A stretch of DNA of 64,000 nt from Planctomycetota bacterium (GCA_038231435.1 JBBRLJ010000001.1:1-64000); one strand, 5' to 3'. Shown: positions 31,775 through 61,140, counted from the stretch's first letter. The notes: generated from the letters alone by a model not told the origin. Numbers and translations are program-made.

Positions 31775-34700
31775 GTGGGCGAGGCTGCTGACGATCCGTA
31801 CGAGTTGGGTCCGCCCATCGAGCAGCCTCCCGCAGCGGAGGGTGAGGCCGCGGGGGCGCCGGCCCCCGACAGCCCTTCGGCTGATTCCCCGCCTGCCGGC
31901 GAAGGGTCCGCTGCGACGGTCGCCGATGGCCCGGTGGTCAGCATGCCGATCAATCGCCCAACGCTGACCCAGCGGCTGGATCGCTACGGCATCAAGCGCA
32001 ACCAGGATCCCGCACCGACTTGCCCGGCTCCGACCGCTGGCGCTCCACCGTCCGCCGCATCACCGCTTGCCGCGGCCGGCGCGGCGCACTCGGCCGATCC
32101 GGCGGTGGATCTTCCGATCAACCGCCCACCGCTGACCCAGCGTCTCAACCGATACGGCGTCAAGCGCGCGACCTCGAGCGGGCAGCGCTTTTCGCCCGAT
32201 CACCAGTTGGGCGCAGGATCGGCCGGCATCGTCATGTCGATGCGCGACCGCAACCTCGCGCGCTCGGTGGCCGTCAAGTACATGCCCGGTCAGCTCAGCA
32301 ACATTGCGAGCGCGGACATCGAGGACTTCATCTCTGAAGGCCAGATCATCGCATCCTTGCAGCATCCGAACATCCTGCCGGTCTGCGATCTCGACGTCGA
32401 CGACGAGGGCCGTATCTACTACATGATGAAGGAGGTCGACGGGCATTCCCTCGGTTCGGTCATCCAGCTCTCCAAACCCGGAGCCCGCGCCGCCGAGATC
32501 GCCGACATCAATAGCGTGCTGCACATCTTCCTATCGATCGCGCGAGCCATCGCCTACGCGCACAGCAAGGGCGTCATACACCAGGACATCAAGCCCGAGA
32601 ACATCATCCTCGGCAAGTTCGGCGAGATCTTGCTGATCGACTGGGGCAGTGCTTTCCGCGTCAGCGACGTGAAAGAGAAATCACCGCAAGGCACGCCGCT
32701 GTACATGAGTCCCGAGCAGGCTCGTCTGCAGCAGGCGGATGCGCGCAGCGACATCTACTGCCTCGGCGCCACCCTCTTCCACGCTCTCGCCCTGCGCCCG
32801 CCGACCTGGTCGGACGATCCGACGACGTTCGAGGAGATGAAGAAGGAAGGCACCGTCATCGGTTTCAGCAAGGATGAGCTGCGCTTCATCCCTAAGGATC
32901 TCGCGGCCATCACCCTGAAAGCCATCGCCAGCGCGCCCGAGGCCCGTTACCCGACGGCCGACGATCTGGTTCGTGATCTCGAGAACGTCCAGGCGGGACT
33001 CGCGGTGAGCGCACGGCCGGCCGGCCCCATCGAATCGGTCGCGCGCGCCTTCCGCCGCCACCGCAAGGCCATCCTCGCTGTCTCCATTCCAGCCTTGGTG
33101 ATAACCTTGCTGCTCGCTGCGCTCATGGGTGAACGCATCAAGGAGCTGGCGAACTGGGGCATGCCCATCGCCACCGCGATCGAGGAAGGCCAACTGAGGG
33201 CGGATTGGCACGTCCTCTCTGGCGATTTCGACCTGAAAGACGGCAAGCTGGTGAGCCAGGCTGACAACATGTCGCTGCTGCTCTACGATAAGAAGCTGTG
33301 GGGCGACGCCGCCATCGAGTGCGACGCCACCATGCTTCCGGGTGGTCCGCCGTGCGACCTGTCGATCATGTTCGCCAGGACCGCCACCTTCGATGACAAG
33401 GGCCGCGGCGGAGCAAAGGACTACTACCAGCTGAAGTTCGGCGCCTTCGACGGCGCATACGCGTGCATCATGGGGCCGAAGGACCAGTACCTCGCGTACT
33501 CGGCCAAGCGGCCCGAACTCGGGCGGACCTACCACCTCCGGGCCGAGGTCGCCTGGGACACCATCACCATGTACATCGATGGCGAACGCATCCTCACCTA
33601 CCGGCACGACGTTCCGCTCAGTGGCGGATACCTCGGAGTCTTCGGTTACTACAAAGGCAAGCAGTTCGAGAACATCAGGATCTATTCCCATTCGGTGCCG
33701 CAGAAGGTGCCCGCGCTCGCGATCGGCGATTCGTACTACGAGAACGGGCTCTTCGAGCAGGCCGGCGAGCAGTACCAGAAGCTGATGAATTCGCATCCGG
33801 GGTCCGACCTCGGCGCCTGCGCCGCTTATAAGCGCGGCCTGTGCCTCGCCGCTCTCGACAAGCACGAGGAGGCTTCCGCGCAGTGGGCCCAGATCGCCGG
33901 CACCGCCTATGAGCCGCTGGCCCATCTCCAGGAGGTGAACCACCTGTTCGCGCAGAACGATCACGACGGCGTGATCGCCGGCATGAAGAACGTCGCCAAG
34001 TTCTGGCGTTCACAGGAAGCGCAGCAACAGATGCCGGTGCTGTGGGCGACCTATGTGAAGGATCTGATGTCGCGCAGCACCGAGTCGCCGCAAACGATCG
34101 CGAAATACCTCAAGCTCCACGACGACAGCCTCAAGGACTACCATTCCGCCGATTTCCAGGCCGCCGAAGCCCTGATCTATCTCGGCAGGTTCGACGAGGT
34201 GCTGTCGCTCTATCCGCTGCAGGAGCCGGTGTGCTGCTCTGCGTTGATCTACCAAGGCCGGCCCGAGGACGTACCCAAGCTCTACCCGCGTCAGCGCGCC
34301 AAGGCCGCGGATGCGCTGTTCACGATGGGGCTCTCCGAGCAGGTGGATCAGCTCTATCCCGAGGTCACCTGGATACGGCTGCGCGGGCTGATCGCGCGCG
34401 GCAAGGCCGATCAGGTCGAGAAGGTCTTCCCCGACGCGACCTGGGGCAAGGCCGAGGCCGCGGTCGTCCTCGGTCGGCTCGACGACATCGAGTGGATGAA
34501 GGACCAGGGCATCGGATACGTCACCGCGCTGCTGTTCAACGGCAAGGTGAAGGAGATCCCGAAGGAGCAGCCCGGTTACGAGGATTTCACCTGCATGATG
34601 GTCGAGGGCCATCCGCAGGAAGCTCTCGAGAAGCACCCGTATGACTTCACCCGCGCACTGTGGGCCCGCCACTATCTCGGCCTGCGCGAGTTCATCGCCG

Positions 34701-35149
34701 GCGACCAAGCCCAGGCCTTTGCGTCGTTCGAGCTGCCGATCGGCAGCGAGTTCCACCAGGAGCACTTCGCCTTCACCCACTACGTGATGGTGCCGATGCT
34801 GCATCAGCTCGGAGGCCAGAAGAACAGGCTCGCCGAAGCGTGCCGCCAGGTGGTCGAGACCAGGCGTTACGCCTACGAGCAGAAGCCCTGGCATTACGCC
34901 ATGTACCTGCTGGGGAGCATGGACGACACGGCCTTCCTGGCCCAGCCGCACTGCGTCTACGCCTCGGCCGACCTGGTGCTGTGCAAGGGCGTGCGCGCCG
35001 ACTCCGCCGGGGACAGCGAGCTGGCGCTGGCATCCTACCGCGACTACCTGCAGATCCCGCTCTACCGGCGAGCCAAGACCATCGATCCGGTGATCAATAC
35101 CTTCGTCGAATGGCGGGTGAAATCACTTTCGGAGCCCCAGCCGCGCTGA
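31775..35149 (+). CDS. Membrane Ser/Thr protein kinase with ConA/LamG-like and TPR domains
   Basis: LGAGSAG.V, VAVK, HQDIKPEN, DWG, GTPLYMSPEQ, SDIYCLG; TM helix; beta-sandwich; TPRs. Confidence 0.9.
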   Translation: MGEAADDPYELGPPIEQPPAAEGEAAGAPAPDSPSADSPPAGEGSAATVADGPVVSMPINRPTLTQRLDRYGIKRNQDPAPTCPAPTAGAPPSAASPLAAAGAAHSADPAVDLPINRPPLTQRLNRYGVKRATSSGQRFSPDHQLGAGSAGIVMSMRDRNLARSVAVKYMPGQLSNIASADIEDFISEGQIIASLQHPNILPVCDLDVDDEGRIYYMMKEVDGHSLGSVIQLSKPGARAAEIADINSVLHIFLSIARAIAYAHSKGVIHQDIKPENIILGKFGEILLIDWGSAFRVSDVKEKSPQGTPLYMSPEQARLQQADARSDIYCLGATLFHALALRPPTWSDDPTTFEEMKKEGTVIGFSKDELRFIPKDLAAITLKAIASAPEARYPTADDLVRDLENVQAGLAVSARPAGPIESVARAFRRHRKAILAVSIPALVITLLLAALMGERIKELANWGMPIATAIEEGQLRADWHVLSGDFDLKDGKLVSQADNMSLLLYDKKLWGDAAIECDATMLPGGPPCDLSIMFARTATFDDKGRGGAKDYYQLKFGAFDGAYACIMGPKDQYLAYSAKRPELGRTYHLRAEVAWDTITMYIDGERILTYRHDVPLSGGYLGVFGYYKGKQFENIRIYSHSVPQKVPALAIGDSYYENGLFEQAGEQYQKLMNSHPGSDLGACAAYKRGLCLAALDKHEEASAQWAQIAGTAYEPLAHLQEVNHLFAQNDHDGVIAGMKNVAKFWRSQEAQQQMPVLWATYVKDLMSRSTESPQTIAKYLKLHDDSLKDYHSADFQAAEALIYLGRFDEVLSLYPLQEPVCCSALIYQGRPEDVPKLYPRQRAKAADALFTMGLSEQVDQLYPEVTWIRLRGLIARGKADQVEKVFPDATWGKAEAAVVLGRLDDIEWMKDQGIGYVTALLFNGKVKEIPKEQPGYEDFTCMMVEGHPQEALEKHPYDFTRALWARHYLGLREFIAGDQAQAFASFELPIGSEFHQEHFAFTHYVMVPMLHQLGGQKNRLAEACRQVVETRRYAYEQKPWHYAMYLLGSMDDTAFLAQPHCVYASADLVLCKGVRADSAGDSELALASYRDYLQIPLYRRAKTIDPVINTFVEWRVKSLSEPQPR

Positions 35150-35212
35150 TGCGGTATCGGGCACGCTCGTTGCCCCTCACTGGCGCCACGGCGACGGGCT
35201 CCAGGACAGCGC

Positions 35213-35794
35213 CTAGTTCGTGCGTTCCCAGGTCCCGGTCGAGCTCGTGTAGGTGAACACGATGTCGTCCTGGGTCTTGGCGGGTGTCCCGGCCACGCTG
35301 GTCACCACGACGGAGTTCACGTAGTATCGTGGCAGGCCGCCTGGGATCGCCCGCGACCCATTGGTGATCGTGAAGCGCAGCCTGGATGTCTCGGGATCGC
35401 CGCTGAACGCATCGCAGATCTGGTCGGCCGTGCTCGACGTGGCGGCATTGGCGTAGGGGCCGCTGCCGCTCGCGAGGCGGTTCAACGGCAATTCGAGGTA
35501 CGGTGTCTTGCCGATGGTCGGCGGATTGCGCGCGAGGAACGTCCATGGCGAGGCGATGAAGTCCGCAGACGTGGGCGAGTCTCCCAGCACCGGATAGTCC
35601 GATAGGTAGAGTGTAAGGGCGCTGGTCACCTGCTCGATGATGCGCGTGGTGGCGACGCGCTGCTGCTGCCGTTTCAGCATCCCCATGACCGCCAGCACCA
35701 GCCCCGCGAGCATCAGCACGATGGCGATGGTGATCATCAACTCCAAGATGGTGAAACCGCGGGCGCGCAGACGTGGGAGCTGGTGGTCGCTCAT
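35213..35794 (-). CDS. Prepilin-type protein (GspG-like paralog 4)
   Basis: RG|FTILELMITIAIVLML; C-terminal DDI. Confidence 0.85.
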   Translation of the reverse strand: MSDHQLPRLRARGFTILELMITIAIVLMLAGLVLAVMGMLKRQQQRVATTRIIEQVTSALTLYLSDYPVLGDSPTSADFIASPWTFLARNPPTIGKTPYLELPLNRLASGSGPYANAATSSTADQICDAFSGDPETSRLRFTITNGSRAIPGGLPRYYVNSVVVTSVAGTPAKTQDDIVFTYTSSTGTWERTN

Positions 35795-36777
35795 TTGATC
35801 TCGATCGGAGTCGACAGCAGGGATTCGTAGCGGCGCGTCAGTCCGGCGGGCACGCGTTTGCCGAGCTTGGTCCCCGACCACGGCGGAGAGGCGAAGCTCG
35901 ACGACGACCAAGTGGAGGCCTCGCATACCAGGCTCGTCTGCGACCAGATGCTTGCCAGATCCGCGGGAGTTCCGGCGAGGGGCGTGATGAGCACCGGCCC
36001 CGCGGAGGCGACCGCAAGATAGACGCTGCGGTTGTACTGGTAGACGGTGCTGGCCTTCTTGAGCCGGTCATTGATCAGCGTCGATGGCGGCGGACCGGGA
36101 ATCGCCTGCGCGGTAACGGTGGGCTGGAACAGGCCGTAGACGATGACCAGCGGGTGACCCCATGCGTCGTTCCAGCCCTTCTTGGCGCTGCGATCATTCT
36201 GGTACGCGTCCAATGCTTCGTCGGGCACGGTCATGGCGTCGTCCCGGGGCAGGACATTCGCCGCCAGCTTCATCAATTCCACCGTCTTGAGCGGATTGAG
36301 ATCGGCGAGCGTCGCGGTGCTGACGAATCTCCGCCCTGGTCCAACCTGCTTCGCATCCGGCTCACCCTGGCTGATGGCCGCCGGCACCGCGGGAGCGGCG
36401 ATCACGGGATCGTCCTGATCGAGGAGATCGTCCTTGTTCCACGGGAAGCCGAAGTTGTGGATCTTGGTGACGTCCAGCCATGGGTTGACCGTCGGATCAG
36501 GATTCGGCGTGATGCCATCGAGAAACTTGATGTCGGTGACGCCGCCAAGACCGGCGTCGCGCTGCAGGACGAACGCCGCTGAGCCTTCCTGGATGCCGAC
36601 CTCCGACAGCGCCTTCTGGATGTTGTCCATGCGCTGGGTGGTATTGAGCACCTGGGCTGAGAAGCGCATGCGGCCGAGCATCGGAAGGAGCAGACCAATC
36701 AGTATCGAGATCACCACGACGACGATCAGCAGTTCGAGCAGGGTGAAGCCCCGGCGTTGCGCGCGCTGAATGGCCAT
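35791..36777 (-). CDS. Prepilin-type protein (GspG-like paralog 3)
   Basis: RRG|FTLLELLIVVVVISIL; DAWGHPL...SAGP. Confidence 0.87.
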   Translation of the reverse strand: MAIQRAQRRGFTLLELLIVVVVISILIGLLLPMLGRMRFSAQVLNTTQRMDNIQKALSEVGIQEGSAAFVLQRDAGLGGVTDIKFLDGITPNPDPTVNPWLDVTKIHNFGFPWNKDDLLDQDDPVIAAPAVPAAISQGEPDAKQVGPGRRFVSTATLADLNPLKTVELMKLAANVLPRDDAMTVPDEALDAYQNDRSAKKGWNDAWGHPLVIVYGLFQPTVTAQAIPGPPPSTLINDRLKKASTVYQYNRSVYLAVASAGPVLITPLAGTPADLASIWSQTSLVCEASTWSSSSFASPPWSGTKLGKRVPAGLTRRYESLLSTPIEIK

Positions 36778-37802
36778 CACTGATCTCCGTGCACGATGTT
36801 GTCGCGCGAGCCGTCGAGATCATCTCCCGCGGGCACGACGGCATCCGCGGTGGTCTGCAGGATCCCATCCGGACCCGGATCCCAGCGGAACACCCCGTCA
36901 GGGCCGGCGGACATCAGCCGCAGCGCTCCGCCACGAGAGTAGCTGCTGAGTATCTCGTGCCCCCAGGCGTCGTAGAGCCCGAGACCGCGCAAGCGGTAGA
37001 GCTTGTACGCCCCCCCATCCAGAATCCGTCCTGGCTTCCATCTCGACTCGCCACCGGAAGGCTCGGGAGACCACAGCAGACCGGCGTGGATCAGCGCCGC
37101 GTCGTCGGGCGGACTGAACAGCGCCTTGAGACGGGCGAGCTCCGTGGAGACGTTGCTGTTCCCGAACAGGTAGTCGATCGCCTGCTGGTTATCCTGCGGC
37201 GTTCCCGCGGAGATGACATGGCTGAGCTTCTCTGTGTAGAGCGGATTGCTGTTGTCGTACGGCGGCGGAATGGTGGTCGCCGGAGGCGCCGGTTTGGGCA
37301 GCCTGAAATAGTCGGTGACCGCCGACTGGTCCGCGCCTATCACGTACAAGTACTCGCGGCGCATGCCGAAGAGGATCGGCACCGCCGGATCGGCGAACAG
37401 GTCGTCAGGCATCATCACCCGGTCGCCGTTCGAGGTCACCGACCATTCGTCGACGCCCTTGAGCGCTTGCCCCGCTGGATTCACCACGGTCATCGCTCCG
37501 CCGACGACGCTGCCGTCCGGCTGCAGGATGCGTCCACGCAAGCCGACGAATGGCGAGCGAGGGGCCTTCGAACCCGCGAGCGGGTGCTCGCTGGGGGCGG
37601 GCGCTCCGCCCTTGTTGGCCACCGTCAGCTCGATGCCCTGGCGGATCTCGGCGAGGATCACGTTGGTCTTGGATTTGGCGGTGGACCTCTTCAAGACGTT
37701 CACCGTTCCGAGGACGATGCCCGCGAGTATGCTGATGATCACCACCACCATCAGCAGTTCGATCAGGGTGAACGCCCGAGCGAACTCAGAACTCCTGCGC
37801 AT
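36777..37802 (-). CDS. Prepilin-type protein (GspG-like paralog 2)
   Basis: RA|FTLIELLMVVVIISIL; DAWGHEI...MSAGPDG...DNI. Confidence 0.87.
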   Translation of the reverse strand: MRRSSEFARAFTLIELLMVVVIISILAGIVLGTVNVLKRSTAKSKTNVILAEIRQGIELTVANKGGAPAPSEHPLAGSKAPRSPFVGLRGRILQPDGSVVGGAMTVVNPAGQALKGVDEWSVTSNGDRVMMPDDLFADPAVPILFGMRREYLYVIGADQSAVTDYFRLPKPAPPATTIPPPYDNSNPLYTEKLSHVISAGTPQDNQQAIDYLFGNSNVSTELARLKALFSPPDDAALIHAGLLWSPEPSGGESRWKPGRILDGGAYKLYRLRGLGLYDAWGHEILSSYSRGGALRLMSAGPDGVFRWDPGPDGILQTTADAVVPAGDDLDGSRDNIVHGDQ

Positions 37803-38367
37803 TCGCCACTCCGATCGAATAGATCGCGATTCCCACGCGGACCTGGTCGTCCAGGCTGCGCACGCTGAACGGAGCATCCGGAACGGCGCCGATGTTGGTC
37901 GGCACCATCGGCGATCCCGTCTGGATCGGAAAGCCGGTCCGGGACTGGTACTGCCAACCTTTGTTGGATGTCATCGGCACATTGCCGTCGAAGACCACCA
38001 CGTTGCGATTGAATGGGATCCTGCATACCGGCTTAGCGGGAGCGCCACCGTCCGTCAGGATGGTCGCGCGCGTCGCGTCGAGGCCGTAGGTCACCGCCAC
38101 GTAGGAAGGGAGGCCGTCATCGACCACCACCACCACGCCGTAGCGCATCGGCGAGGCTTGGCCGGATCTGGCGAGCCCCGTGGCGATGGACGAGGCGTTC
38201 ATGATGCTGCTCGCGGCGTCCGAGATCCGCCCCTTGCGCAACGCCCCGAGCAGGCCGGGAAGCGACATGCTGGCGAGGAGCATGATGATGCCGAGCACCA
38301 CCACCATCTCGATGGCGGTGAAGCCAACGCGGGCGCGCGGGCACCGATGCGCGGAGCGGTCACTCAT
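37786..38367 (-). CDS. Prepilin-type protein (GspH/FimT-like)
   Basis: VG|FTAIEMVVVLGIIMLL..SLP; AASSI..A...AR pattern. Confidence 0.85.
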   Translation of the reverse strand: MSDRSAHRCPRARVGFTAIEMVVVLGIIMLLASMSLPGLLGALRKGRISDAASSIMNASSIATGLARSGQASPMRYGVVVVVDDGLPSYVAVTYGLDATRATILTDGGAPAKPVCRIPFNRNVVVFDGNVPMTSNKGWQYQSRTGFPIQTGSPMVPTNIGAVPDAPFSVRSLDDQVRVGIAIYSIGVANAQEF

Positions 38368-38980
38368 TGTTGGCGCCCGACCAGCTGGTGATGTCGTCCA
38401 GCGTGCCGTCCTGGCCATCGGGACCGAGCGACCAGACGCCGAAGCCGTCCGCCCCGTAGGTCTTGACCGAGAACGCGATGTGCAGTGGATGCCGCCATGC
38501 GTCCACGACCTGGCGCTGCGCGTTCATCTGCTCCTTGCGCAACGGCACGTTCGGGTTCATGGCCACGAAGCCACCGTACCCCGACTTGATGAGTTCGTCC
38601 CAGAAGGGCCCGTCGCAGGTCGGCCCGGCGGCGGCTCCGGGGAGTCCGTCGAGAATCCCGTCGCCCTGCATGAGGTTAGGGCCTCCGCCGGGCGGCTCAT
38701 TCATGTCCCAGAGATGACCGAGGCGTTCAAGCCTCGGGCCGGTCGGATCCGATGGGTCCGGAGCCGACACGGTCCAGGTGCGGGTGGAGTAGACGTTGAT
38801 CGCCGTGGCGACGGCATGGACCAGCATGCGCGTGCCCTGGATGCGCGCGCGATTCCTGGTCGAGGTCAGGATGCCGTAGCCCATTCCGGACAATGCCGCG
38901 ATGATCGAGACGACGATCATCATCTCGAGCAGTGAAAACGCATGGCGGCTGGGCCGTCGAATCCGGACTGCGACGCGCAC
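38360..38980 (-). CDS. Prepilin-type protein (GspG-like paralog 1)
   Basis: HA|FSLLEMMIVVSII; VVDAWRHPL...VWSLGPDGQDGTLDDITSW (GspG C-terminal signature); GTG follows GAGGA. Confidence 0.88.
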   Translation of the reverse strand: MRVAVRIRRPSRHAFSLLEMMIVVSIIAALSGMGYGILTSTRNRARIQGTRMLVHAVATAINVYSTRTWTVSAPDPSDPTGPRLERLGHLWDMNEPPGGGPNLMQGDGILDGLPGAAAGPTCDGPFWDELIKSGYGGFVAMNPNVPLRKEQMNAQRQVVDAWRHPLHIAFSVKTYGADGFGVWSLGPDGQDGTLDDITSWSGANNE

Positions 38981-39303
38981 GATCAAATCCTCGACTGGGA
39001 TAGTATACCCGCCGACCACTCGCCGTGCGCGACCCCGCAGGTGCTCCCCGCCCACGCTTGCTAAATGGGTCGGATGGTCGCCGCCTCGATCGTGGCTAAC
39101 GCCCGATTGCAACCTTCGCAACCGATGGCGCGGCATCTGCGGCATATCCTCCTCCGATCTCATGCGGTATCCTCTCCGGTTAGGGCACTCGGCGATCATG
39201 CCTCCGTCCGGACGGAGCCTCCTGACCGTTCAACCCGGGTGGCACGCCCGGGGCCGAGTGGCCTTGCGGGTACTGGACGTCCGGTTTACCTCGGTAAGCA
39301 TAT

Positions 39304-39320
39304 CTATATATTAGTGAATC
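39304..39320. promoter_or_regulatory. Candidate operator CTATATATTAGTGAATC in the pilin divergon
   Basis: Matches the sites at 19922 and 56586; overlaps TTTACC-N16-TATATT. Confidence 0.65.
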
Positions 39321-39431
39321 ACTATAGGCTGCCCGTCTCCCGTTCCACGGAAAGGCCCTGATGACGTCTCCCGCCTGCTCCGCTAGCATGTCCGCCACGA
39401 CCGCAGGAATTCGCCGCCCTTGAAACCGACC

Positions 39432-41462
39432 ATGCGCAAATCATTGAACACGCTGAATTTGCACAGGCGCGGCATGACCCTCTTCGAGGTCGCCATCTCG
39501 CTGGTCATCATGACCGTCGGCATCCTCAGCTGTATCATGCTGTTTCCGGCGGGCATCAAGGCGCAGCAGATGGCGAAGATGAAGCTGCTCGCCGGGGCCA
39601 AGGCCCAGGAGATGGTCGACAGCTTCGTGTCCTCGACCACCGCCAACCCGACCATCGATGTCGAGGCGTACAATCCCTGGGACGTCCCCGTCACCTATCG
39701 TAGCCTGAGCTGGGACCTCGAAACCAGACTGTCATCGCACCGCTTCGGCATCATGCCCCTGCCACTCGAGATCGCGCGCCGCCTCGATTCGGAGAACGAC
39801 GAGATCCAGACCATCCTCGACCAGGGCGGCTACATCTACTATTCGCAGCCGAACGCCGTCTCGAGCATGCAGGAGACCTCGCTCGAGGCCGCGCCCGCCA
39901 ACGAAAACCAGACCCTCATCTTCGCGGTGACGGGCTACGCACAGCAGGATTCGCTGACGATCTTCCCGTGGAAGGCCTGGCCCTATGTGGGCAACTATCC
40001 CTCGCCGCCGCTGCACGCGTACCGGCCGACGGGCGGAGCGGAGAATATATTCACCTCGGGGCTGACCGGGAACTTCGTCTTCCATTACTGGACGCATTGG
40101 GACTTCGGCGACTCGACCGGCGTGACTCCCGAAGAGCTCGTCGATCCGAGGATGGTCACCGTGCTGCAGGCGTACGAGGACTACGAATACGGCACGTCGC
40201 CCACCGACCAGGGTCCGACCGAGGCGAAGTGCATCGCCTACATCCAGGCCGCACTGGCGTACTGCGTGGCAGTGGGCGTGCCGTCCTACTTCTACGATCC
40301 ACCGGTGGCGCCGGATCCCACCTTCATGCCCGGGGTCGGCCTCCAGTTCACGCCGATCAAGGAGTTCGAGGGCTGGACATCCGCGCAGACCGCGGCTCCT
40401 GCTGCGCACCTGCAGGTCCAGGCGATCCGCTTCCTCGCCCACGCCGCCGCATGCATCACCTATTACCACCGGCTCAACGAATTGGGCGGACAGCCGTCGG
40501 TGGCGGGCAGCGGTTTCCCCATACCCGCGGCCGCCACCGCTATCGGCGCATCGCCCGCCGTCGAGTTGACCCACGACAAGCTGCTCTACTACCACGAGAG
40601 CTGCCTGAATCTCGCGATGCTGTTCGCGTCGCGTTTCCCCTACGACTTCGGCGCGCCCCGGCCGATCCAGCGCTCGATCATGATGGATCACCCCCTGTTC
40701 GAGCCCGACCTCTTCGGCGCGCCGCTGTCGGGCACCCATTTCAACGGCAATCCGCTCGCGCCTGGGGTCTCCACCGCGCAGCATTGGCGACCGATACCCG
40801 GGCAGCCGCTGAAGAATCCCGGCGCCAGCTATTCGTTCCCCAACCGTCCGCTGCCGGCCGCCGGGAACCCGTTCTGGGGCGACCAGGCCCACTTCACCCT
40901 GACCAGGAAGTTCCAGCCCAAGGAGCGTTGCCGTCAGATCGTCTTCTGGTCGGCCGATTGGCAGAGCTACCAGGATTTCGAAACCGCGCCGAGCGCGCCG
41001 GTCGACGCTGGCAAGTATCCCATCGCCGCGCCGCTCGCCGGCGTCACCTTCGACCAGCGGCTGTCGGCGGTGAGCTTCCGCGACGAGATGATGTACGCGT
41101 TCCGCAATCCCGAGAAGACGCTGCTCTTCGTCCACGACATGACCGGGACCATTGCCACGCCACCGCCGGCGCCCTCGCGGGTACAGACGGGGACCATCCT
41201 GTCGAAGAAGAACGAGGTCGACATCCTGCTCACTCCGAACGACGCGAATCCCCACGTGCCGCCGGACCGCATCCCCTCGGCCCCGGCAACCCCGGATCAG
41301 ATCGCGACGGCCAAGATGATCTTCACTGGCCAATACGGCGCCGATCGCAACTTCAATTACCGCCTCGACCGTGGGCCGGTGCCCCCCTCGGTCCGCCTGC
41401 GCGCGACGCAGGTCGCCCGCTTCAACTTCTACGATGGGCGCGTCCCCGCGCCCATCCGGTGA
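39432..41462 (+). CDS. Large prepilin-type protein (PilV/GspI-like N-terminus)
   Basis: RRG|MTLFEVAISLVIMTVGILS..LFP.G followed by ~640 aa of unassigned domain. Confidence 0.82.
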   Translation: MRKSLNTLNLHRRGMTLFEVAISLVIMTVGILSCIMLFPAGIKAQQMAKMKLLAGAKAQEMVDSFVSSTTANPTIDVEAYNPWDVPVTYRSLSWDLETRLSSHRFGIMPLPLEIARRLDSENDEIQTILDQGGYIYYSQPNAVSSMQETSLEAAPANENQTLIFAVTGYAQQDSLTIFPWKAWPYVGNYPSPPLHAYRPTGGAENIFTSGLTGNFVFHYWTHWDFGDSTGVTPEELVDPRMVTVLQAYEDYEYGTSPTDQGPTEAKCIAYIQAALAYCVAVGVPSYFYDPPVAPDPTFMPGVGLQFTPIKEFEGWTSAQTAAPAAHLQVQAIRFLAHAAACITYYHRLNELGGQPSVAGSGFPIPAAATAIGASPAVELTHDKLLYYHESCLNLAMLFASRFPYDFGAPRPIQRSIMMDHPLFEPDLFGAPLSGTHFNGNPLAPGVSTAQHWRPIPGQPLKNPGASYSFPNRPLPAAGNPFWGDQAHFTLTRKFQPKERCRQIVFWSADWQSYQDFETAPSAPVDAGKYPIAAPLAGVTFDQRLSAVSFRDEMMYAFRNPEKTLLFVHDMTGTIATPPPAPSRVQTGTILSKKNEVDILLTPNDANPHVPPDRIPSAPATPDQIATAKMIFTGQYGADRNFNYRLDRGPVPPSVRLRATQVARFNFYDGRVPAPIR

Positions 41463-41469
41463 TCCGCCA

Positions 41470-43005
41470 ATGACCCCCTCGCGACGTCATGTACCCGGCT
41501 TCACGCTCATCGAGCTGATCATCGCGGTCTCGCTGTCGACCGTCATCGTCTACATGGCATTTTCGGCGTTTCGCGTCGCGGCCCAGTCGATCTCGATCGC
41601 CAACCGCATGTCGCTCGAGAACCAATTGATGCGCGCCGGCTTCGTCTACGCCAACGAGGCGGTGGATTTCTGGACGGATCTCGACAACCCCGACAGCGCC
41701 GCTCCACTCGCCCACCCGCTGCGCGGGACCGACGACAACGGCTGCGCGCCGCTTCCTGGCATGCCGGCGGACTGCTACCAGCAGGGCCTGCCGTTCACGC
41801 CCTTCGCCTCGACCTTCCCCGCGCCCATCGCCCCCGCGCCGCTCGATCCCGAGCGCAAGCCGGAATGGGACGGTTCCGACATGGCCTGGAGCGCATCCAA
41901 TCCCGCCGCGTGGTGGCGCGGCGATACCTGCCAGTCCTGGCAGTTCGACCTCACCCACGGCTTCTACTCGATCTTCGCCAACGCCGATTCGGACAGCGCC
42001 ACTCCGTCGAGCGTCGACAGCTACTGGACGACCTACGATGCCGACCCCGCGCTCGGCAACGGCAATCCCGCATGGAACGGCTACGATCCGACGCGTTCGC
42101 CCTACCAGGATTACTGGCAGACCCGCGCCTACGCCTCGACCGCGAGCGGGCTCACCGTCAGGTCGCCACATCCGTGGCTTTACCGGCAGATGCGCGCACT
42201 GTTCAAGAGCATCGGCTATTTCGGCTTCTGCGATTACCTCCCGGCCAACAGCATGCTGGGCTGGTACCAGCGGTTCTCGCATCAGGAACAGGGCACGAAC
42301 CCGCGCAGCCCAATGTGGCTGCGCCTGCGACCGTCGCAGCTGCAGGATACCGATCAAGGCGGCGTGCCCCTCAAGCTCATCGCCAATGGCGGCCAGTGCG
42401 ACGGCAACTTCAATCGCGGACGGGACTTCTTCAACGAGACCGACTGGGACGCGCGCACCATTCCAGGGCGTTTCAACCTCACGCACCAGGGCCTGGTGGC
42501 GCTGCCGGCTCCGGTCATGCGCATGACCTACAAGGCGATCTACGACACCAACGGCATCCTCGGCTACCGGCCGCTACCCGGTCAGCAATCGCAGGCTCCC
42601 CTGGTGGTGTCCGACCTGTTCAGGTACTCCTACTTCAACTGGGCATGGGTCTCGATGTGGACGGGAGCCGGCCCGGGCGGATTCGCGGACCAGAGCACCC
42701 TGCAGTGGTTCAACGACCACACCGCGATGGGAGATTGGCCGCTGCAGGTCCGTCCGTCGCACTGGCCCAATCTCACCATCGGCGTCCAACGCTACCTGCG
42801 CGACTCGCACTTCTTCAATCTCTGCCGTGTGAACATCACCTCGCCGCTCACCGGGGAAGCCAAGGAGCTGAACTTCACCACCTTCGGCACCACCTTGCGC
42901 GGTGCCCGGCAGCAGCGCGGCAAGAACGCCGGCTGGGCGAAGTGGGATGACGCCGGGACAAGCTTCACCTACGATCCAGCGATCTCGCACTTGGACGCCC
43001 CATGA
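41470..43005 (+). CDS. Prepilin-type protein (PilW/GspJ-like)
   Basis: PG|FTLIELIIAVSLSTVIVYMAF; aromatic-rich body. Confidence 0.85.
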   Translation: MTPSRRHVPGFTLIELIIAVSLSTVIVYMAFSAFRVAAQSISIANRMSLENQLMRAGFVYANEAVDFWTDLDNPDSAAPLAHPLRGTDDNGCAPLPGMPADCYQQGLPFTPFASTFPAPIAPAPLDPERKPEWDGSDMAWSASNPAAWWRGDTCQSWQFDLTHGFYSIFANADSDSATPSSVDSYWTTYDADPALGNGNPAWNGYDPTRSPYQDYWQTRAYASTASGLTVRSPHPWLYRQMRALFKSIGYFGFCDYLPANSMLGWYQRFSHQEQGTNPRSPMWLRLRPSQLQDTDQGGVPLKLIANGGQCDGNFNRGRDFFNETDWDARTIPGRFNLTHQGLVALPAPVMRMTYKAIYDTNGILGYRPLPGQQSQAPLVVSDLFRYSYFNWAWVSMWTGAGPGGFADQSTLQWFNDHTAMGDWPLQVRPSHWPNLTIGVQRYLRDSHFFNLCRVNITSPLTGEAKELNFTTFGTTLRGARQQRGKNAGWAKWDDAGTSFTYDPAISHLDAP

Positions 43006-44075
43006 CCACCTTCAGGCAGATGAGCCGCATTCGCCAGGGAACCCTGCTGATCATCGTCTCCGGACTGTGCGCGATGCTGATGTCGCTCAGCCTGATGTTT
43101 CTGGCGCGCATGCGTGGCGACGCGCGCGACATCCTGCTGGTGACGCGCATGTCCCAGGCCCGGCTCATGCTGGTTGCCGGTTGCAACTACATCCAGGAAG
43201 CCTCGCGCCTCGGTTGGGAATACCATCCCGCCCCGGCCGGATGGGCGGGATCGGCGACCTCGATCGCCATCAACCCCGCGGATCCCTCGCAGCGCGAGAG
43301 CTACGGCTGGATCGACGTGCGCGACGGCTACATGGGCCCGAAGAACACCGAATACACCGACGTCAACGGCTTCGACGCGGCCTGGCGCGCCGCCCACCCG
43401 AAAGCGACTACCCCCAGCCAGAACTTTCCGATCGGCTCAGTGGCGCGCTGTCCGATGTATGTGATGCGCCGGCCGCCATGCGCGATCCAGCTCACCGTCA
43501 CCTACAACCCGATCTCCAGCGATCCGGCGTCTCCCGATTTCGGCCTGCCCTACTTCAAGAACCTGGATCCCAAGCCGCAGCTCGGCCCGGGCGCACCGAG
43601 CTACGCCGACTGGGTCGACCCTCAGGCGTCGGATCCCGACCAGCCGCTCAGCCCGCGCCAGGAATCGGTGAACCTCGCCTGGTTCCGCGTCTACCGCGAT
43701 GGCCCGGCCACCTTCGTCATCACCTGCGGCGCCGGCCCCACCCAGGGCTTCCGCTCGTGGGCAGAGATGACCGCGGCCGACCGCGACATATACGGGAACG
43801 ACCAGCCGTACTTCGAGGATCTGCTCGCCCAGGAATACTGCACCTGGTACCGCGTCGAATGGAGTGCCGCCGTGCAGGACCTCGAATACCACATCATGCC
43901 GCAGGAGCACAATCGCAACGTCTACCTCTACGACTCGATGAACATCAGCCACATGTTCGGCTTCGCGGCCGGACCGAACCAGAACACGTGGAACTGGGGC
44001 CTGACCCACCAGCGCAACATGGTAGGCACCATCAAGTGGGTACAGCGACTGGTCGATCCGCCGACGAAGTGGTGA
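43002..44075 (+). CDS. Prepilin-type protein (PilX/GspK-like)
   Basis: RQG|TLLIIV with no Glu5, as is typical of K/X pilins; QARLML.AG; ATGA overlap. Confidence 0.78.
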   Translation: MTTFRQMSRIRQGTLLIIVSGLCAMLMSLSLMFLARMRGDARDILLVTRMSQARLMLVAGCNYIQEASRLGWEYHPAPAGWAGSATSIAINPADPSQRESYGWIDVRDGYMGPKNTEYTDVNGFDAAWRAAHPKATTPSQNFPIGSVARCPMYVMRRPPCAIQLTVTYNPISSDPASPDFGLPYFKNLDPKPQLGPGAPSYADWVDPQASDPDQPLSPRQESVNLAWFRVYRDGPATFVITCGAGPTQGFRSWAEMTAADRDIYGNDQPYFEDLLAQEYCTWYRVEWSAAVQDLEYHIMPQEHNRNVYLYDSMNISHMFGFAAGPNQNTWNWGLTHQRNMVGTIKWVQRLVDPPTKW

Positions 44076-56697: not shown

Positions 56698-58320
56698 CTA
56701 CTCCTCAAGTCCTTCGGCCCACAAGGGTTGATCGAATTCCCCCTCGAGATCGTAGGTCTTCCACTGGTCCACTCCCGGTGGCGCGATGGCGCTCAGACGG
56801 ACCCGTAGCCGTGCACCCGGAACTAGACTCGCGGCTGGCTGGAGCTGGCGTTTGAGCATGACCGGGGTCTGGAAGAGCACGGTCTCCTGGTCGAAGGTGC
56901 CCGACACGACCGTGGTGACGCGCAGCTTCAGGGTGGCCAGCGCGTTCTCGTAGGTGCCGTCGGTCTCGATCGGCCCTACCGCCGGGCTGATCAGCTCGCC
57001 CTCGATCACCAGGTCGATTCCGTGGGCGGGGGTGGGCTTCGGCTTCGCGACCCTGCCAGCCGGCAGGCTGATGATCCGCCAGGCCACCGCCTCGTCGTAG
57101 AGATCGCGCGCCGACACCTCCCACACCACCACCTTGGCGTGCTCGAGCGGCGCGGGTTCGTTGGCTAGGGCCTGCCTGACGTCGGAAGCCCCGCCGCCGT
57201 TCTTGGCGATGGCGAACACTCCCTGGCCGAGACGGCGCATGAGCTGTTGCGCGAGTCCGGCCCCCTCGCCCCAGCCAAGATCGCGGCTGCTGTAGATGTT
57301 GGTGTAGCTGTCGCCGAGGAGCAGGATGGGCGCCTCGGGATCGTTGGCGATCGCCGGCGCTCCATCGACCAGCGTCTGCGTGAGCTCCGCCGTCTCCAAC
57401 GCGAAGCGACCCGGGCGTGCCGCGATCCCCAGCATGCCGAGCAGGTCGCCGGAATTCGCGATGGACCCTGCGCGAGCCACGTACGCGCGCGTGGGCATGC
57501 CCGGCACTGGATGGGGCATGAAGTCGCGCAGTTTTTCCGCCAGGCGATCCGCTGCGATACCGAGGCCTCGCTGCGACCAGTGCGTGTCGCGCGCGAGGAA
57601 CATGCGGCCGGCCTCCTTGCCAGCCCACAGATCTGGTGTGATGTCCAACGCGTCGACACCGACGGCGGCGAGGCGGCGCATGAAGATCTCGTGGTCCAGG
57701 TTCCATGCCGGTCCCGACGCCGCCGGATATCCGGCCCACACCTCCTCCGGATAGATCACCGGCTTGACCGGCACCAGCATGAATACCAGGTGGATGCCGC
57801 GTTGGTCGAGCTGGCGGCGGAAATCGGCGATCGCCTCGACCGGATCCTGCGCGGTGCCCGCGGCGATGCGACGGCGGCGTGAGGCAGCCGACTGCGCGCC
57901 CGGTCCGCAGGCGAGGTCGATCTCCTTGCGGAAGAACAAGAAGCCATCGCGGCCGACCACGATCTTTTCGGTGCCCTGGCCGAGGAGCGAGGTGACCAGA
58001 TCCTGGTAGGGGCCGCGAACCCGTTTGGCGAGCAGCGAGTCGCGCGAGAGGTCATTCTCGAAGCGCTTGAGCGATGCGGCGGTCGGGAACTCATGGAACA
58101 GCCGTGGAATGGACCATCCGCCATCGGTGGCGAGTTCGTGCAGGGACTGATGCAGCGGCGGGATGCAGATGCACAGCATGAACGCCGCCGCCATCGCCCA
58201 GGCGATCCCGCGAGATATGTGCGCGTCAGCCATCACCTCGGTGACGGGCTTGTCGTCGCCCGGCGACGGTGGATGCCCGTGGGTGCGGTCGAGCGGGGTG
58301 GGTGGTTTGATGGCGGTCAT
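56698..58320 (-). CDS. AlgJ/AlgX-like O-acetyltransferase (SGNH) with extra C-terminal domain
   Basis: TM helix; VVGRDGFLF, VPVK..IYPE, DTHWS, GDL, LLGDSY. Confidence 0.85.
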   Translation of the reverse strand: MTAIKPPTPLDRTHGHPPSPGDDKPVTEVMADAHISRGIAWAMAAAFMLCICIPPLHQSLHELATDGGWSIPRLFHEFPTAASLKRFENDLSRDSLLAKRVRGPYQDLVTSLLGQGTEKIVVGRDGFLFFRKEIDLACGPGAQSAASRRRRIAAGTAQDPVEAIADFRRQLDQRGIHLVFMLVPVKPVIYPEEVWAGYPAASGPAWNLDHEIFMRRLAAVGVDALDITPDLWAGKEAGRMFLARDTHWSQRGLGIAADRLAEKLRDFMPHPVPGMPTRAYVARAGSIANSGDLLGMLGIAARPGRFALETAELTQTLVDGAPAIANDPEAPILLLGDSYTNIYSSRDLGWGEGAGLAQQLMRRLGQGVFAIAKNGGGASDVRQALANEPAPLEHAKVVVWEVSARDLYDEAVAWRIISLPAGRVAKPKPTPAHGIDLVIEGELISPAVGPIETDGTYENALATLKLRVTTVVSGTFDQETVLFQTPVMLKRQLQPAASLVPGARLRVRLSAIAPPGVDQWKTYDLEGEFDQPLWAEGLEE

Positions 58321-58331
58321 GCGCGTGGCTG

Positions 58332-59861
58332 TCAGAATTGGAAGTAGAGGAAGGGGTTGTAGCTCTGCGTGCTGAGCGCCACGACCGACCACAGGAACAA
58401 GGCGATGGCCGCGAACGCGCGTGGCGGCGTCACGCGCTTCGACAGATCCCAGGTCTGCACCCCGAAGAAGGCGATGCCCGCCGCGATCGCCATCCACGCC
58501 AGGTGGTCTGGCGAGAACAGCACCGAGCGGGTCAGCAGCGCGGTCGCTTGGAGCGGTCCGTTCAGCCCGAACATCCAGCCGAGGTAGTCGATCGCCGCCG
58601 GCAGATCCTTGGCGCGGAAGAACACCCAGGCGAGATTGACGATCACGAAGGTGACAGCGACCCGCGCGACGGTCGGCGCGCGCGCATAGAAGCTCTCCTT
58701 GCCCTGGGTACGCTCGAAGGCCAGCCACGCGCCGTGGATGCCGCCCCAGATCAGGAAGTTCCACGATGCCCCGTGCCAGAATCCGCCGAGCAGCATCACC
58801 GTCAGCAGGTTGGCGTAGGTGCGGCCGACGCCGAGACGGTTCCCACCGAGCGGGATGTACAGGTAGTCGCGCAGCCAGGTCGACAGCGAGATGTGCCAGC
58901 GCCGCCAAAATTCGGTGATGCTTCGGGATTTGTAGGGCGAGTCGAAGTTCTTATTGAACTCGAACCCGAGCATCAGCGCCAGGCCGATGGCCATGTCCGA
59001 GTAGCCAGAGAAGTCGAAATAGATCTGGAACGCATAGCCGAACAGCCCGTACCAGGCGTCGGCGCAGTGCAGCTGGCCGCCCATGAACGCGGCATCGGCG
59101 ATCTCGCCCATCGGGTTGGCGATGAGGATCTTCTTCCCCAGCCCGAGCGAGAAGAAGAACACGCCGCGCGAGAATTTCTCGATCGTATGCGTGCGCCGGT
59201 GCAGCTGCCGCTCCATGTCCTGGTAGCGGATGATGGGGCCCGCGACCAAATGCGGGAACTGGGTGATATAGCAGGCGAACGCGTTGAGCGCGCGTGCCTC
59301 GCGCCACAGTTTTGCGCGCATGGTCGCGGCGACACTGCCGCGGGCGCGATCGATGGCGTCGATCCACGCGCTCGCCGGCTTGGCGAGGCCGGTGTAGATG
59401 TCGAGATTGTAGCTGATCGACTCGAAGGTGTAGAACGAGATGCCCGCGGGCAGCAGAATCGACATGACCTGGAACCCGTCCCTGCCGAACACCGCAAGCA
59501 GGCGGTTCACGTTCTCCTCTGCGAACATGACGTACTTGAAGAAGAACAGCATGCCGATGTTGCTGATCAGCGAGACCGTCAGGAACAGCTTGCGCTGGAC
59601 GGTGCCCGCGCGCGGCGCGCCGTCGGGCCCAATTCCCAGCGGTCCGATCAGGCGCCAGTGGCCGTGGATGAGGTTGCCGCAGGTGAAGTCGACGATCGTC
59701 GACCACATGATCAGCAGGATGAACCAGGGGTTGGTCCAGCCGTAGAACACGTAACTCGCCGCGGTGAGCACCGGCATGCGCATGGCGCGCGGCGACGAGT
59801 AGTACGCCAGCAGCGTCAGCGGCAGGAAGTAGAAGATGAAGATGTGCGAGCTGAAGACCAT
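58332..59861 (-). CDS. MBOAT O-acyltransferase (AlgI/PatA/DltB-like)
   Basis: MVFSS.IF, LPAGISFYTF, FPHLVAGPIIRY, QIYFDFSGYSDMAIG, FWRRWHISLS, GFWHGA, FLYFQF. Confidence 0.93.
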   Translation of the reverse strand: MVFSSHIFIFYFLPLTLLAYYSSPRAMRMPVLTAASYVFYGWTNPWFILLIMWSTIVDFTCGNLIHGHWRLIGPLGIGPDGAPRAGTVQRKLFLTVSLISNIGMLFFFKYVMFAEENVNRLLAVFGRDGFQVMSILLPAGISFYTFESISYNLDIYTGLAKPASAWIDAIDRARGSVAATMRAKLWREARALNAFACYITQFPHLVAGPIIRYQDMERQLHRRTHTIEKFSRGVFFFSLGLGKKILIANPMGEIADAAFMGGQLHCADAWYGLFGYAFQIYFDFSGYSDMAIGLALMLGFEFNKNFDSPYKSRSITEFWRRWHISLSTWLRDYLYIPLGGNRLGVGRTYANLLTVMLLGGFWHGASWNFLIWGGIHGAWLAFERTQGKESFYARAPTVARVAVTFVIVNLAWVFFRAKDLPAAIDYLGWMFGLNGPLQATALLTRSVLFSPDHLAWMAIAAGIAFFGVQTWDLSKRVTPPRAFAAIALFLWSVVALSTQSYNPFLYFQF

Positions 59862-59871
59862 CAGGCTTTCG

Positions 59872-59895
59872 GTTGGGGGGCTACGGCCCCCCAAC
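59872..59895. repeat. REP-like hairpin GTTGGGGGGC-TACG-GCCCCCCAAC
   Basis: Perfect inverted repeat similar to the terminal hairpins of the dispersed repeat. Confidence 0.6.
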
Positions 59896-60090
59896 ATCGC
59901 GCTCCGCGCTGCCCCCCGAGCAGCCAGAGGTGGAGAAGCGTGGATATCGGTGATGGGCCTTGCGCGGCGTCCTCTTCAGCTTCTGCAACAGCACCTCTGT
60001 CAGCAGGACATCTGTCAGGCAGGCTCGACGTCCGCTCCACGCATGGTCCTCTCGTTCATCCGGTCTGGAAGTGCGCGACTGCGACCATGC

Positions 60091-61140
60091 TCAGGGGCGG
60101 ATGACCGGAATGCGCTGCCAGCCCTGGATGGATTCGGTGAACTCGCGGCAGGTGAAGCACCACACCACGCAGCGCTTGCCGGCCAGGTTGTCCTTGCGGC
60201 GTGCGAGGATCATGCGGCTGCCGTTGGCGCCACTGCCCTTCACGCCGACCAGGTCTGGGGCGAAACCGAGCTCGCCGGCCAGCAGATCGGGCAGGCCGGC
60301 GTGGCTGGTCAGCAGGTCGCGGCTGAAGACCAGCGTATGGCTGTCGCCCATCAGCAGCAGCGGGCTCTTGGCGTCGCTCTCCACGTCAGCGCCGTCGAGC
60401 TTCACGGTCTCGACCGCAAGCGTTTCGGTCGCCGTCTCGTCGCCGAGCAGCTGCGCGAGATCACCATGCGCCGCGATGGTGCCCGCCGTGGCCGTGACCG
60501 CCTTCTTCGGCACGCCGGCGAACCAGGGCTGGGGCGACACCAGCGCAGCGATCGCCTTCGCGGCTACCCGCACCGCGGCCGGCGACCAGTGCGAATCCGA
60601 GCGGCAGTAGGCGTCGGTCCCGGAGGCGCGCAACGCGGCCAGCTCGGGCTGGAGATCGATGGTTGTCACGCCGCGTCCGGCGAGCACCTCGCAGAACCTC
60701 CGCTGCGGTTCGTCCCAGCGCTTCGACGACGGCAGTCTCGGATCGAGCTCGTCGCCGTAGACCGCCACTTTCCCCGGCACTGGCACCACGATCAGGGTGA
60801 TCCCCTGGGTGGCCAGCTGGTCGTGAAACTCAAGGATTGCGGGCAGCGGATCCTGGTTCTTCTCGCACGATGCGGCCGCCACCGCGGCATCGCCCCAGAA
60901 TTCCCCGCGGCTGTAGCTGCGCAATTCACGCGCGAGAAAGCACCAACCGTCGCCACCGCGCACCGCCGAGGCCTTGGCGGTCTCTGCCTGGACGAAGGCG
61001 GCGGCCAGGACTCCGCGCGCTTCGTCGGGTACCGCGGCACGGGCCCATGGAGCGGATGCGCTCACAAGCACGAGCAGCGCCGCCGCCATCCGCCACGGCA
61101 CTCCAGCGGCGCGAGGACGAGGTGAGCGCGAGAGATTCAT
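60091..61140 (-). CDS. Second AlgJ/AlgX-like SGNH O-acetyltransferase
   Basis: Signal peptide; G.DGWCF, VPVPGK, DSHWS, GDL, MGDSH. Confidence 0.85.
   Translation of the reverse strand: MNLSRSPRPRAAGVPWRMAAALLVLVSASAPWARAAVPDEARGVLAAAFVQAETAKASAVRGGDGWCFLARELRSYSRGEFWGDAAVAAASCEKNQDPLPAILEFHDQLATQGITLIVVPVPGKVAVYGDELDPRLPSSKRWDEPQRRFCEVLAGRGVTTIDLQPELAALRASGTDAYCRSDSHWSPAAVRVAAKAIAALVSPQPWFAGVPKKAVTATAGTIAAHGDLAQLLGDETATETLAVETVKLDGADVESDAKSPLLLMGDSHTLVFSRDLLTSHAGLPDLLAGELGFAPDLVGVKGSGANGSRMILARRKDNLAGKRCVVWCFTCREFTESIQGWQRIPVIRP

Follow-up and report, generated by a model that had tools for sequence, protein, structure and literature searches.

A long-standing question about Planctomycetota is how they attach to polymers and take them up, and it is raised by the first 64,000 nucleotides of a contig from a Planctomycetota bacterium (JBBRLJ010000001.1:1-64000, assembly GCA_038231435.1), the stretch of DNA analysed here and called the window (contig C1 of our genome G000). 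Eight pilin-like genes lie together in it, amid genes for glycan utilisation. The original prediction, made from the sequence of the window, was that these genes form a swappable filament or tip module that uses a core machine encoded elsewhere to bind or import glycans or to export the enzymes of the surrounding island. Which genes of this cassette belong together, which machine they could serve and what such a filament would be for are the questions taken up below. Comparison with related genomes shows that one set of three genes, I-J-K, multiplies as a unit and in some of them does so independently of the other five.

Trios that multiply independently of a five-gene operon

All eight open reading frames (ORFs) were found at 35213..44075, arranged as the predicted pair of back-to-back operons. 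The left operon, on the minus strand, is transcribed in the order G1-H-G2-G3-G4, and its successive genes overlap by 1-17 nt. The right operon, on the plus strand, consists of I, J and K, with a gap of 7 nt between I and J and an ATGA overlap between J and K. The labels G, H, I, J and K were assigned by analogy. The window thus holds one five-gene base operon and one trio.

The I family is present in 22 of 36 genomes of the same family, and a weak match was found in one of 24 genomes from other families. There are 164 homologues of I and 251 of J, and those homologues of I and the other cassette proteins that carry names belong to Planctomycetota. Forty relative loci were fetched around I; 29 of them come from four genomes, so they are not a random sample. 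Thirty of the 40 consist of I-J(-K) without G or H genes, five include G or H genes, and five have unusable gene calls. Conversely, a stand-alone G1-H-G2-G3-G4 operon in the order seen in the window occurs in the relatives G031, G008, G015 and G035, with G2 doubled in the last.

Gene counts tell the same story. In relatives that share a base among trios, matches to K and H number 41 and 2 in G015 (60 of the 91 K candidates were scored there, and a few of the matches are fragments), 11 and 1 in G031, 9 and 1 in both G008 and G035, and 3 and 1 in G023. Counts are near parity in G014 (18 and 14), G018 (16 and 11), G010 and G006 (4 and 4 each) and our own genome (9 and 9). The cassette is thus duplicated as a whole in some lineages; in others a single base operon is kept and the trio is multiplied. 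Trio copy number is very uneven among relatives, from 0 to 41. The two parts are nevertheless found in the same genomes: across the 36 family members, K is present in all 21 with H, H is present in 21 of the 22 with K, and 14 have neither. The idea of a swappable module is upheld by these relatives with many trios to a single H-containing operon.

The order I-J-K is kept in all 35 assembled trios, with K third at every locus. The distances of I, J and K co-vary over these 35 trios (Mantel rho 0.63-0.77), which points to inheritance as a unit and is not a measure of binding. The trio in the window resembles the free-standing ones. Its I belongs with trios from other genera that stand alone (FastTree 97), and its K does likewise, weakly (SH-aLRT 82, quick tree). 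G1, G2, G3 and H find their best matches in relatives, within base operons that stand alone, and G4 finds its own in contig C11 of the same genome. We considered whether the cassette in the window could be an inversion of one of the genome's own eight-gene operons and rejected this, as the I tree and the best matches of G1, G2, G3 and H point to relatives.

As expected of a swappable module with its core elsewhere, the genome holds further copies, nine cassettes of this type in total. The full order G1-H-I-J-K-G2-G3-G4 is seen in C26 and C11:217-11929, as well as in contig C44 of the relative G015; the remaining in-genome cassettes keep H-I-J-K-G3, one of them with G1 also. H directly precedes I wherever the cassette is full. 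Across the in-genome cassettes the length of I is between 662 and 1337 aa; both ends of the protein are conserved and its middle is variable. The closest paralogue of the window's cassette is that of C26. Three long-type cassettes forming one clade (G000:C11:12473-14731, C11:26954-32558 and C27:34644-40218) are flanked by FG-GAP/ASPIC-UnbV proteins, which are candidates for cargo or for PilY1-like adhesins. A second cassette type, made up of pilins and a K/PilX-like giant of 936-1849 aa, occurs at five loci (G000:C18:52017-59923, C19:357-9118, C27:16051-23908, C27:70743-78243 and C33:41478-50088); the first of the C27 pair adjoins GH16 and a GntR/LacI regulator and the second adjoins GH9.

Downstream of the base operon, a Wzy_C membrane protein of 700-750 aa lies 3' of G4 in the stand-alone operons of all four genomes (L120-L123). 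The homologue in our own genome (C23:60028-62211) is unlinked to the cassette. A Wzy_C membrane protein in this position is compatible with pilin glycosylation, and it is possible that the protein is a pilin glycosyltransferase.

Predicted proteins, core machinery and a proposed filament

The class III signal motif (G/A at -1, a hydrophobic helix and Glu5, in the start G/A-F/M-x-x-x-E) is present in seven of the eight proteins. G1-G4 and J are above the Pfam N_methyl cut-off; H and I fell below it in a first scan, and in a second scan I passed and H was borderline. G1 (38360..38980, minus; 192 aa mature; N_methyl 24.5 bits) is the most GspG-like pilin of the set and a candidate shaft subunit. 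It starts at a GTG with GAGG upstream, has its best match in L123 (48%), and alone touches Pfam T2SSG, at an E of 0.008 that is under the cut-off. H (37786..38367, minus; 178 aa mature) is a GspH/FimU-like pilin with a weak N_methyl match and is predicted, by analogy with GspH, to be the adaptor that joins the trio to the shaft. G2 (36777..37802, minus; 331 aa mature) and G3 (35791..36777, minus; 318 aa mature; N_methyl 30.9 bits) are enlarged GspG-like pilins, again with best matches in L123 (41% and 38%), and G3 has paralogues in all eight other cassettes of the genome. The last gene, G4 (35213..35794, minus; 180 aa mature; N_methyl 23.1 bits), is also GspG-like, and its orthologues close the base operon in the relative loci L120-L124. 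Of the four GspG-like C-terminal motifs originally predicted, those of G1 (DAWR..SLGPDG..DDI) and G2 (DAWG..SAGPDG..DNI) are complete, that of G3 (DAWG) is partial and that of G4 is degraded.

A 440-bp spacer (38981..39419) with an AT-rich core near 39296-39329 separates the operons and likely holds the promoters of both. One assembled contig of sequencing run X1, a possible source of the assembly, covers 32692-43873, and a contig from a second sample of the same study (X2) bridges 38886-40156 without any difference, which rules out an assembly artefact at the divergent junction. The only repeats at the cassette are the codon repeats of the pilin N-termini, and repeat-mediated switching was likewise rejected.

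On the plus strand, I (39420/39432-41462) is a giant GspI/PilV-like pilin of 662 aa mature, and J (41470..43005; N_methyl 22.8 bits) is an enlarged GspJ/PilW-like pilin of 501 aa mature. K (43002..44075; about 345 aa mature) is GspK/PilX-like, with a G/TLLII start that has glycine at -1 and the hydrophobic helix but no Glu5 and no Pfam N_methyl match, and it is predicted to be the capping subunit of the tip. All three had been described as unusually large; this stands for I and J only, because K has what we take to be an ordinary size for a GspK-type protein. Their predicted richness in aromatic residues is confirmed, with 11.5, 14.0 and 11.8% in I, J and K against a genome 95th percentile of 11.2% and a mean of 7.0%; proline makes up 10.3, 8.0 and 8.4% against a 95th percentile of 8.6%. 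In alignments, conserved blocks alternate with hypervariable loops. In conserved columns 15.8-18.6% of residues are aromatic and in variable columns 7.5-8.2%, so the richness lies mainly in the frame, and we rejected it as a lectin signature; since any family tends to conserve its aromatic columns, a conserved site is still possible.

The model of I (predicted local distance difference test, pLDDT, 86; predicted template modelling score, pTM, 0.84) has a helix at 3-53 and strands at 148-153, 486-493 and 645-653, with a helical bundle between. That of J (pLDDT 77.6; pTM 0.79) has a helix at 13-67 and three consecutive C-terminal strands at 434-470; the region between is a long insertion that is partly uncertain in the model. 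Both models fit a pilin core with large internal insertions. The check proposed for lectin-like folds gave none: at E<=0.001 Foldseek matched neither I nor J to any PDB entry, and the best VIA-align Z scores were 5.6 for I, to a generic helical bundle (residues 179-397), and 4.8 for J, to the N-terminal helix only. Since the queries were whole models of more than 400 residues, in which single domains may be missed, these searches do not establish that the fold is new or that a lectin domain is absent.

In family searches, no protein reached the cut-off of a family model beyond the N-terminal motif. K matched no Pfam or NCBIfam family, and Pfam over 44 K rows gave stray weak hits only. In the ESM Atlas, I falls in an unnamed Planctomycetota cluster, and K has leads to PilX_N and T2SSK_1st below 0.9 only. 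No PilY1-type family turned up among the neighbours scanned, a scan that did not extend to a genome-wide search for PilY1.

Profile searches of C1:1-64000 confirmed that the window has no match to an ATPase, platform protein, secretin or prepilin peptidase. The genome, which is 88% complete, supplies them elsewhere, and more richly than the single core machine originally envisaged. There are ten T2SSE-family ATPases (three full PilB/GspE, five PilT-like, one short GspE-like and one HTH fusion; both PilT-like candidates tested pass TIGR01420), four two-domain PilC proteins, five secretins and one prepilin peptidase, on contig C40. PilM, found at three loci (C69, C23 and C30), is thus present along with PilT, and at least three partial PilM/N/O-secretin loci could be outlined (C22 with C69, C23 and C30), the N and O labels being our own reading. 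N_methyl matches in the genome number 92 at E<=10. One of the loci (G000:C23:79436-91959, L020) has a PilM-like gene, two unassigned genes and then three tandem secretin genes of 778-839 aa. Three tandem, near-identical pilins of 210 aa at G000:C16:15815-18092 are a candidate conventional major pilin. The ATPase nearest the cassette (G000:C1:72272-73771; L017:8273-9772, minus) is an excisionase-like HTH_17 domain fused to a GspE/PilB-type ATPase, 28 kb past the cassette and unlinked to other core genes; it was rejected as the cassette's motor, as it is such a fusion, lacks MshEN and scores under the GspE/PilB cut-offs.

Type IV filaments begin from a minor-pilin tip complex capped by a subunit without Glu5 (PMC10191384). 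We consider it probable, from the class III motifs, the lack of Glu5 in K, the fixed I-J-K order and the presence of core genes only elsewhere, that I-J-K forms an exchangeable priming tip of a type IV filament, with H as adaptor, G1-G4 as shaft or accessory subunits and the loops as the binding surface. The shared adaptor-shaft set would dock the predicted trio onto type IV machines whose genes lie elsewhere. The single prepilin peptidase would cleave the pilins, I-J-K would prime and cap the filament, H would join it to the G-type subunits, and a machine of PilB, PilC, PilMNO and secretin would extend the filament, which PilT may retract. As the trios keep a conserved frame with hypervariable loops, each would give the tip a different binding surface, selected by local transcriptional control. 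The likeliest job of such a filament is to attach to or sample an external surface; for this copy, a polysaccharide particle is a putative target.

Several observations weigh against this proposal. The fold searches of I and J returned no pilin structure, and profiles of I and K against the sequences of solved structures gave nothing meaningful, so the labels I, J and K rest on N-termini, order and topology. No GspG, GspH, GspJ or PilV model reaches its curated cut-off; the best scores against these cut-offs are 34.8 of 88.85 for GspG (TIGR01710, G1), 26.8 of 80 for GspH, 13.7 of 64.85 for GspJ and 35.6 of 52.2 for PilV (TIGR02523, I). The GspG-type motifs in the G subunits point to a periplasmic secretion pseudopilus instead of a surface pilus. 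Any one of the several machines in the genome may be the one used. Lastly, the similar H and K counts in our own genome, G014, G018, G010 and G006 indicate that the sharing of H is lineage-specific.

Neighbouring genes and competing explanations

The predicted glycan-utilisation island around the cassette is real, judged by its content of glycoside hydrolases (GH). A Pfam scan of 42 ORFs in the window found GH42, GH92, two GH78, a GH65/95-like protein and a SASA esterase as carbohydrate-active enzymes (CAZymes), as well as F5/8-domain proteins and a GntR/LacI regulator. The regulator adjoins a DUF6785-DUF6784 membrane protein (16454-18622), a possible transporter. Further along, an MBOAT protein and two AlgX-like SGNH proteins (56698-61140) make up an AlgI/J-type polysaccharide O-acetylation set. 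Both direct neighbours of the cassette, a Ser/Thr kinase and a GH78, are convergent with it. The kinase (31775-35149) has a probable membrane segment and a TPR-like C-terminus; it was rejected as a part of the system on account of this orientation and of at least 22 long paralogues across the genome.

The glycan link was tested on the genes flanking 32 relative loci (at most two per side, 116 in all), after leaving out L071, L073, L076, L088 and L090-L092 (poor calls or contig ends) and three genes of L089 (size cap). As a control we took 142 of the 147 genes on 19 arbitrary stretches, which came from four of these genomes. Strictly defined GH and carbohydrate esterase (CE) families were found in 6/116 flanking and 4/142 control genes (p=0.35). 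A broad class that adds beta-helix, PA14, GDSL, LamG, Sde182 and similar proteins gave 18/116 against 7/142 (p=0.005), a class defined after the results had been seen, and LacI/GntR/AraC regulators gave 9/116 against 3/142 (p=0.04). These p-values overstate the evidence because neither the genes of one locus nor related genomes are independent of each other. By locus, a strict glycan neighbour is present at 6 of 32 and a broad one at 13; at 19 of the 32, none of the flanking genes (four at most) is glycan-related. One locus has a core gene, PilM, as a neighbour. In our own genome, a named GH lies no more than two genes away from one of the eight other cassettes (C26, with LacI and GH29), one more is flanked by a beta-helix protein and three by ASPIC/FG-GAP genes. 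The original prediction was to count as refuted if homologous cassettes lay beside core genes and apart from CAZymes. Half of that pattern is seen: they do not lie beside core genes, and most do not lie beside CAZymes either. A role in glycan use is weakly supported.

The same proteins could instead act in cargo-selective type II secretion, with the trio as the tip of a periplasmic pseudopilus that chooses a large exoprotein and pushes it through the secretin, the cargo being island enzymes here and FG-GAP/ASPIC proteins elsewhere. This would account for the GspG-type motifs of G1 and G2 and finds a parallel in the export of alginate lyases by a type II secretion system (T2SS) suggested in PMC13274419. 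There are five secretins to serve it, a crude hydropathy check gave several island proteins a signal-peptide-like N-terminus, and all five ASPIC/FG-GAP genes found in the genome adjoin three paralogous cassettes. However, these three are one clade and may stem from one co-duplication event, the genes around most trios are housekeeping or unrelated ones, the GH78 beside the cassette has no signal-peptide-like start, and the core loci examined are of the PilM/PilT type. We regard secretion as unlikely.

A more ambitious picture, and to us a rather doubtful one, is that a constant G1-H-G2-G3-G4 base takes any of up to about 40 interchangeable giant I-J-K heads, with a fold not described before, under local sugar-responsive or extracytoplasmic function (ECF) control, and that a subset, this copy included, captures polysaccharides that retraction feeds to periplasmic enzymes, so doing the work of SusC/D in planctomycetes with hardly any TonB-dependent transporters. 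Related trios at L055 and L063, from two genera, each lie beside an ECF sigma factor and a FecR-PA14 anti-sigma factor, which suggests that these copies are under sugar-sensing control.

The narrower form of this idea, that the locus is a polysaccharide utilisation locus in which a tip binds a specific glycan and retraction brings it to the periplasm in place of SusC/SusD, appears decidedly improbable. Planctomycetota are mostly without SusC/D systems. SusD had no match in the 88%-complete genome, three TonB-dependent receptors were found, none of them on C1, and C1 has no SusC/SusD pair beside CAZymes. The CAZyme-rich island, the broad-class and regulator enrichments, the FecR-PA14 and ECF genes beside two of 32 trios and the LacI and GH29 genes beside the closest in-genome paralogue also favour it, as does the pulG-like gene that a Verrucomicrobiota isolate has in a cluster induced by alginate (PMC13274419). 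On the other side stand the lack of strict GH/CE enrichment, the late drawing of the broad class over flanking genes that are not independent, and the single named GH near the other cassettes. Moreover, aromatic residues in variable columns are near the genome mean, the models of I and J matched no sugar-binding fold, the genes on either side of the cassette are convergent with it, and glycan-labelled trios are scattered on the I tree. The original suggestion that pilins replace SusC/D is therefore poorly supported, given the strict test and the lack of a lectin fold.

Receptor variation, in which structurally equivalent trios differ so as to evade pilus-binding phages or predators, would suit the hypervariable loops on a fixed frame, the uneven copy number and the scattered insertion sites, but it is very improbable: there are trio clades that different genera have kept beside similar neighbours (L055/L063 with FecR-PA14, L057/L070 with signal peptidase), which fits fixed roles, and no long repeat or recombinase was found at the cassette.

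Relation to known systems

The preferred reading, an exchangeable tip for surface attachment, has precedents. Several minor-pilin sets can share one machine in M. xanthus (PMC7541494) and Synechocystis (PMC13759059). The FimU-PilV-PilW-PilX-PilY1 clusters 1-3 of the former are alternative priming or tip sets unlinked to core genes on common machinery, as the cassettes here would be, and the cyanobacterial Com and EPS sets are likewise alternative tips on a shared machine. Those organisms have two or three sets, whereas 9 to about 40 are found here, with H common to several trios in some lineages. Unlike the M. xanthus priming clusters, the cassettes have no PilY1 match among the neighbours scanned, and most of the extra mass lies within the I and J pilins, as insertions. 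Streptococcus sanguinis PilB and PilC are also oversized minor pilins, to which the binding function of the tip is ascribed (PMC10191384). There a known adhesive domain is grafted onto a pilin; the insertions of I and J sit between core elements and matched no solved fold in our searches.

With GspG and GspH-I-J-K of the T2SS, the cassette shares class III motifs, the H-I-J-K order of full cassettes, a K without Glu5 and the GspG-like motif of G1 and G2 (PMC10191384). It differs in having no equivalog at cut-off, four G-like genes, no linkage to core genes and up to about 40 trios per genome, and in size: I has 662 aa against a PilV model of 139 positions and J has 501 aa against a GspJ model of 192.

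Multi-copy pilin-only cassettes are known from genomes of the Planctomycetes-Verrucomicrobia-Chlamydiae (PVC) group, namely Verru_Chthon A-D (TIGR02596-TIGR02600) and DUF1559, and were put forward as a precedent in the original prediction. The likeness is one of organisation. The Verru_Chthon models gave at most 23.5 bits, over the N-terminal helix only, against cut-offs of at least 70, and none of the eight proteins matched DUF1559 in Pfam at E 0.01, so membership of either is not supported. By the tests run, then, the cassette acts like a known kind of system, an unlinked alternative priming set, and is not a member of the GspG-K equivalogs, Verru_Chthon or DUF1559.

A published parallel on the glycan side is Verruconatronum alginivorum, in which an expanded pseudopilin family (67 homologues) has a pulG-like member within an alginate-induced polysaccharide-degradation cluster, according to a proteome with one replicate per treatment (PMC13274419). 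It too is a PVC bacterium, though of another phylum, and what it has in that cluster is a single pulG-like gene instead of an I-J-K trio with a five-gene partner operon; homology to the cassette is not established. By analogy, this gene keeps a glycan role plausible for some copies. Searches of full-text literature, with subscription journals largely outside their coverage, found no description of the cassettes themselves. New here are a five-gene module found once or twice per genome and common to many trios, the co-occurrence of H and K, and a controlled test of the glycan link.

I and J, confidently modelled and without a solved-fold match in our searches, are targets for structural work. 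If the glycan link fails, an unusually large repertoire of putative tips remains. The clean split between one constant base operon and many variable trios opens the system to direct tests, and the gene counts point to the principle of alternative tip sets at work in these bacteria on ten times the scale known from Myxococcus and the cyanobacteria.

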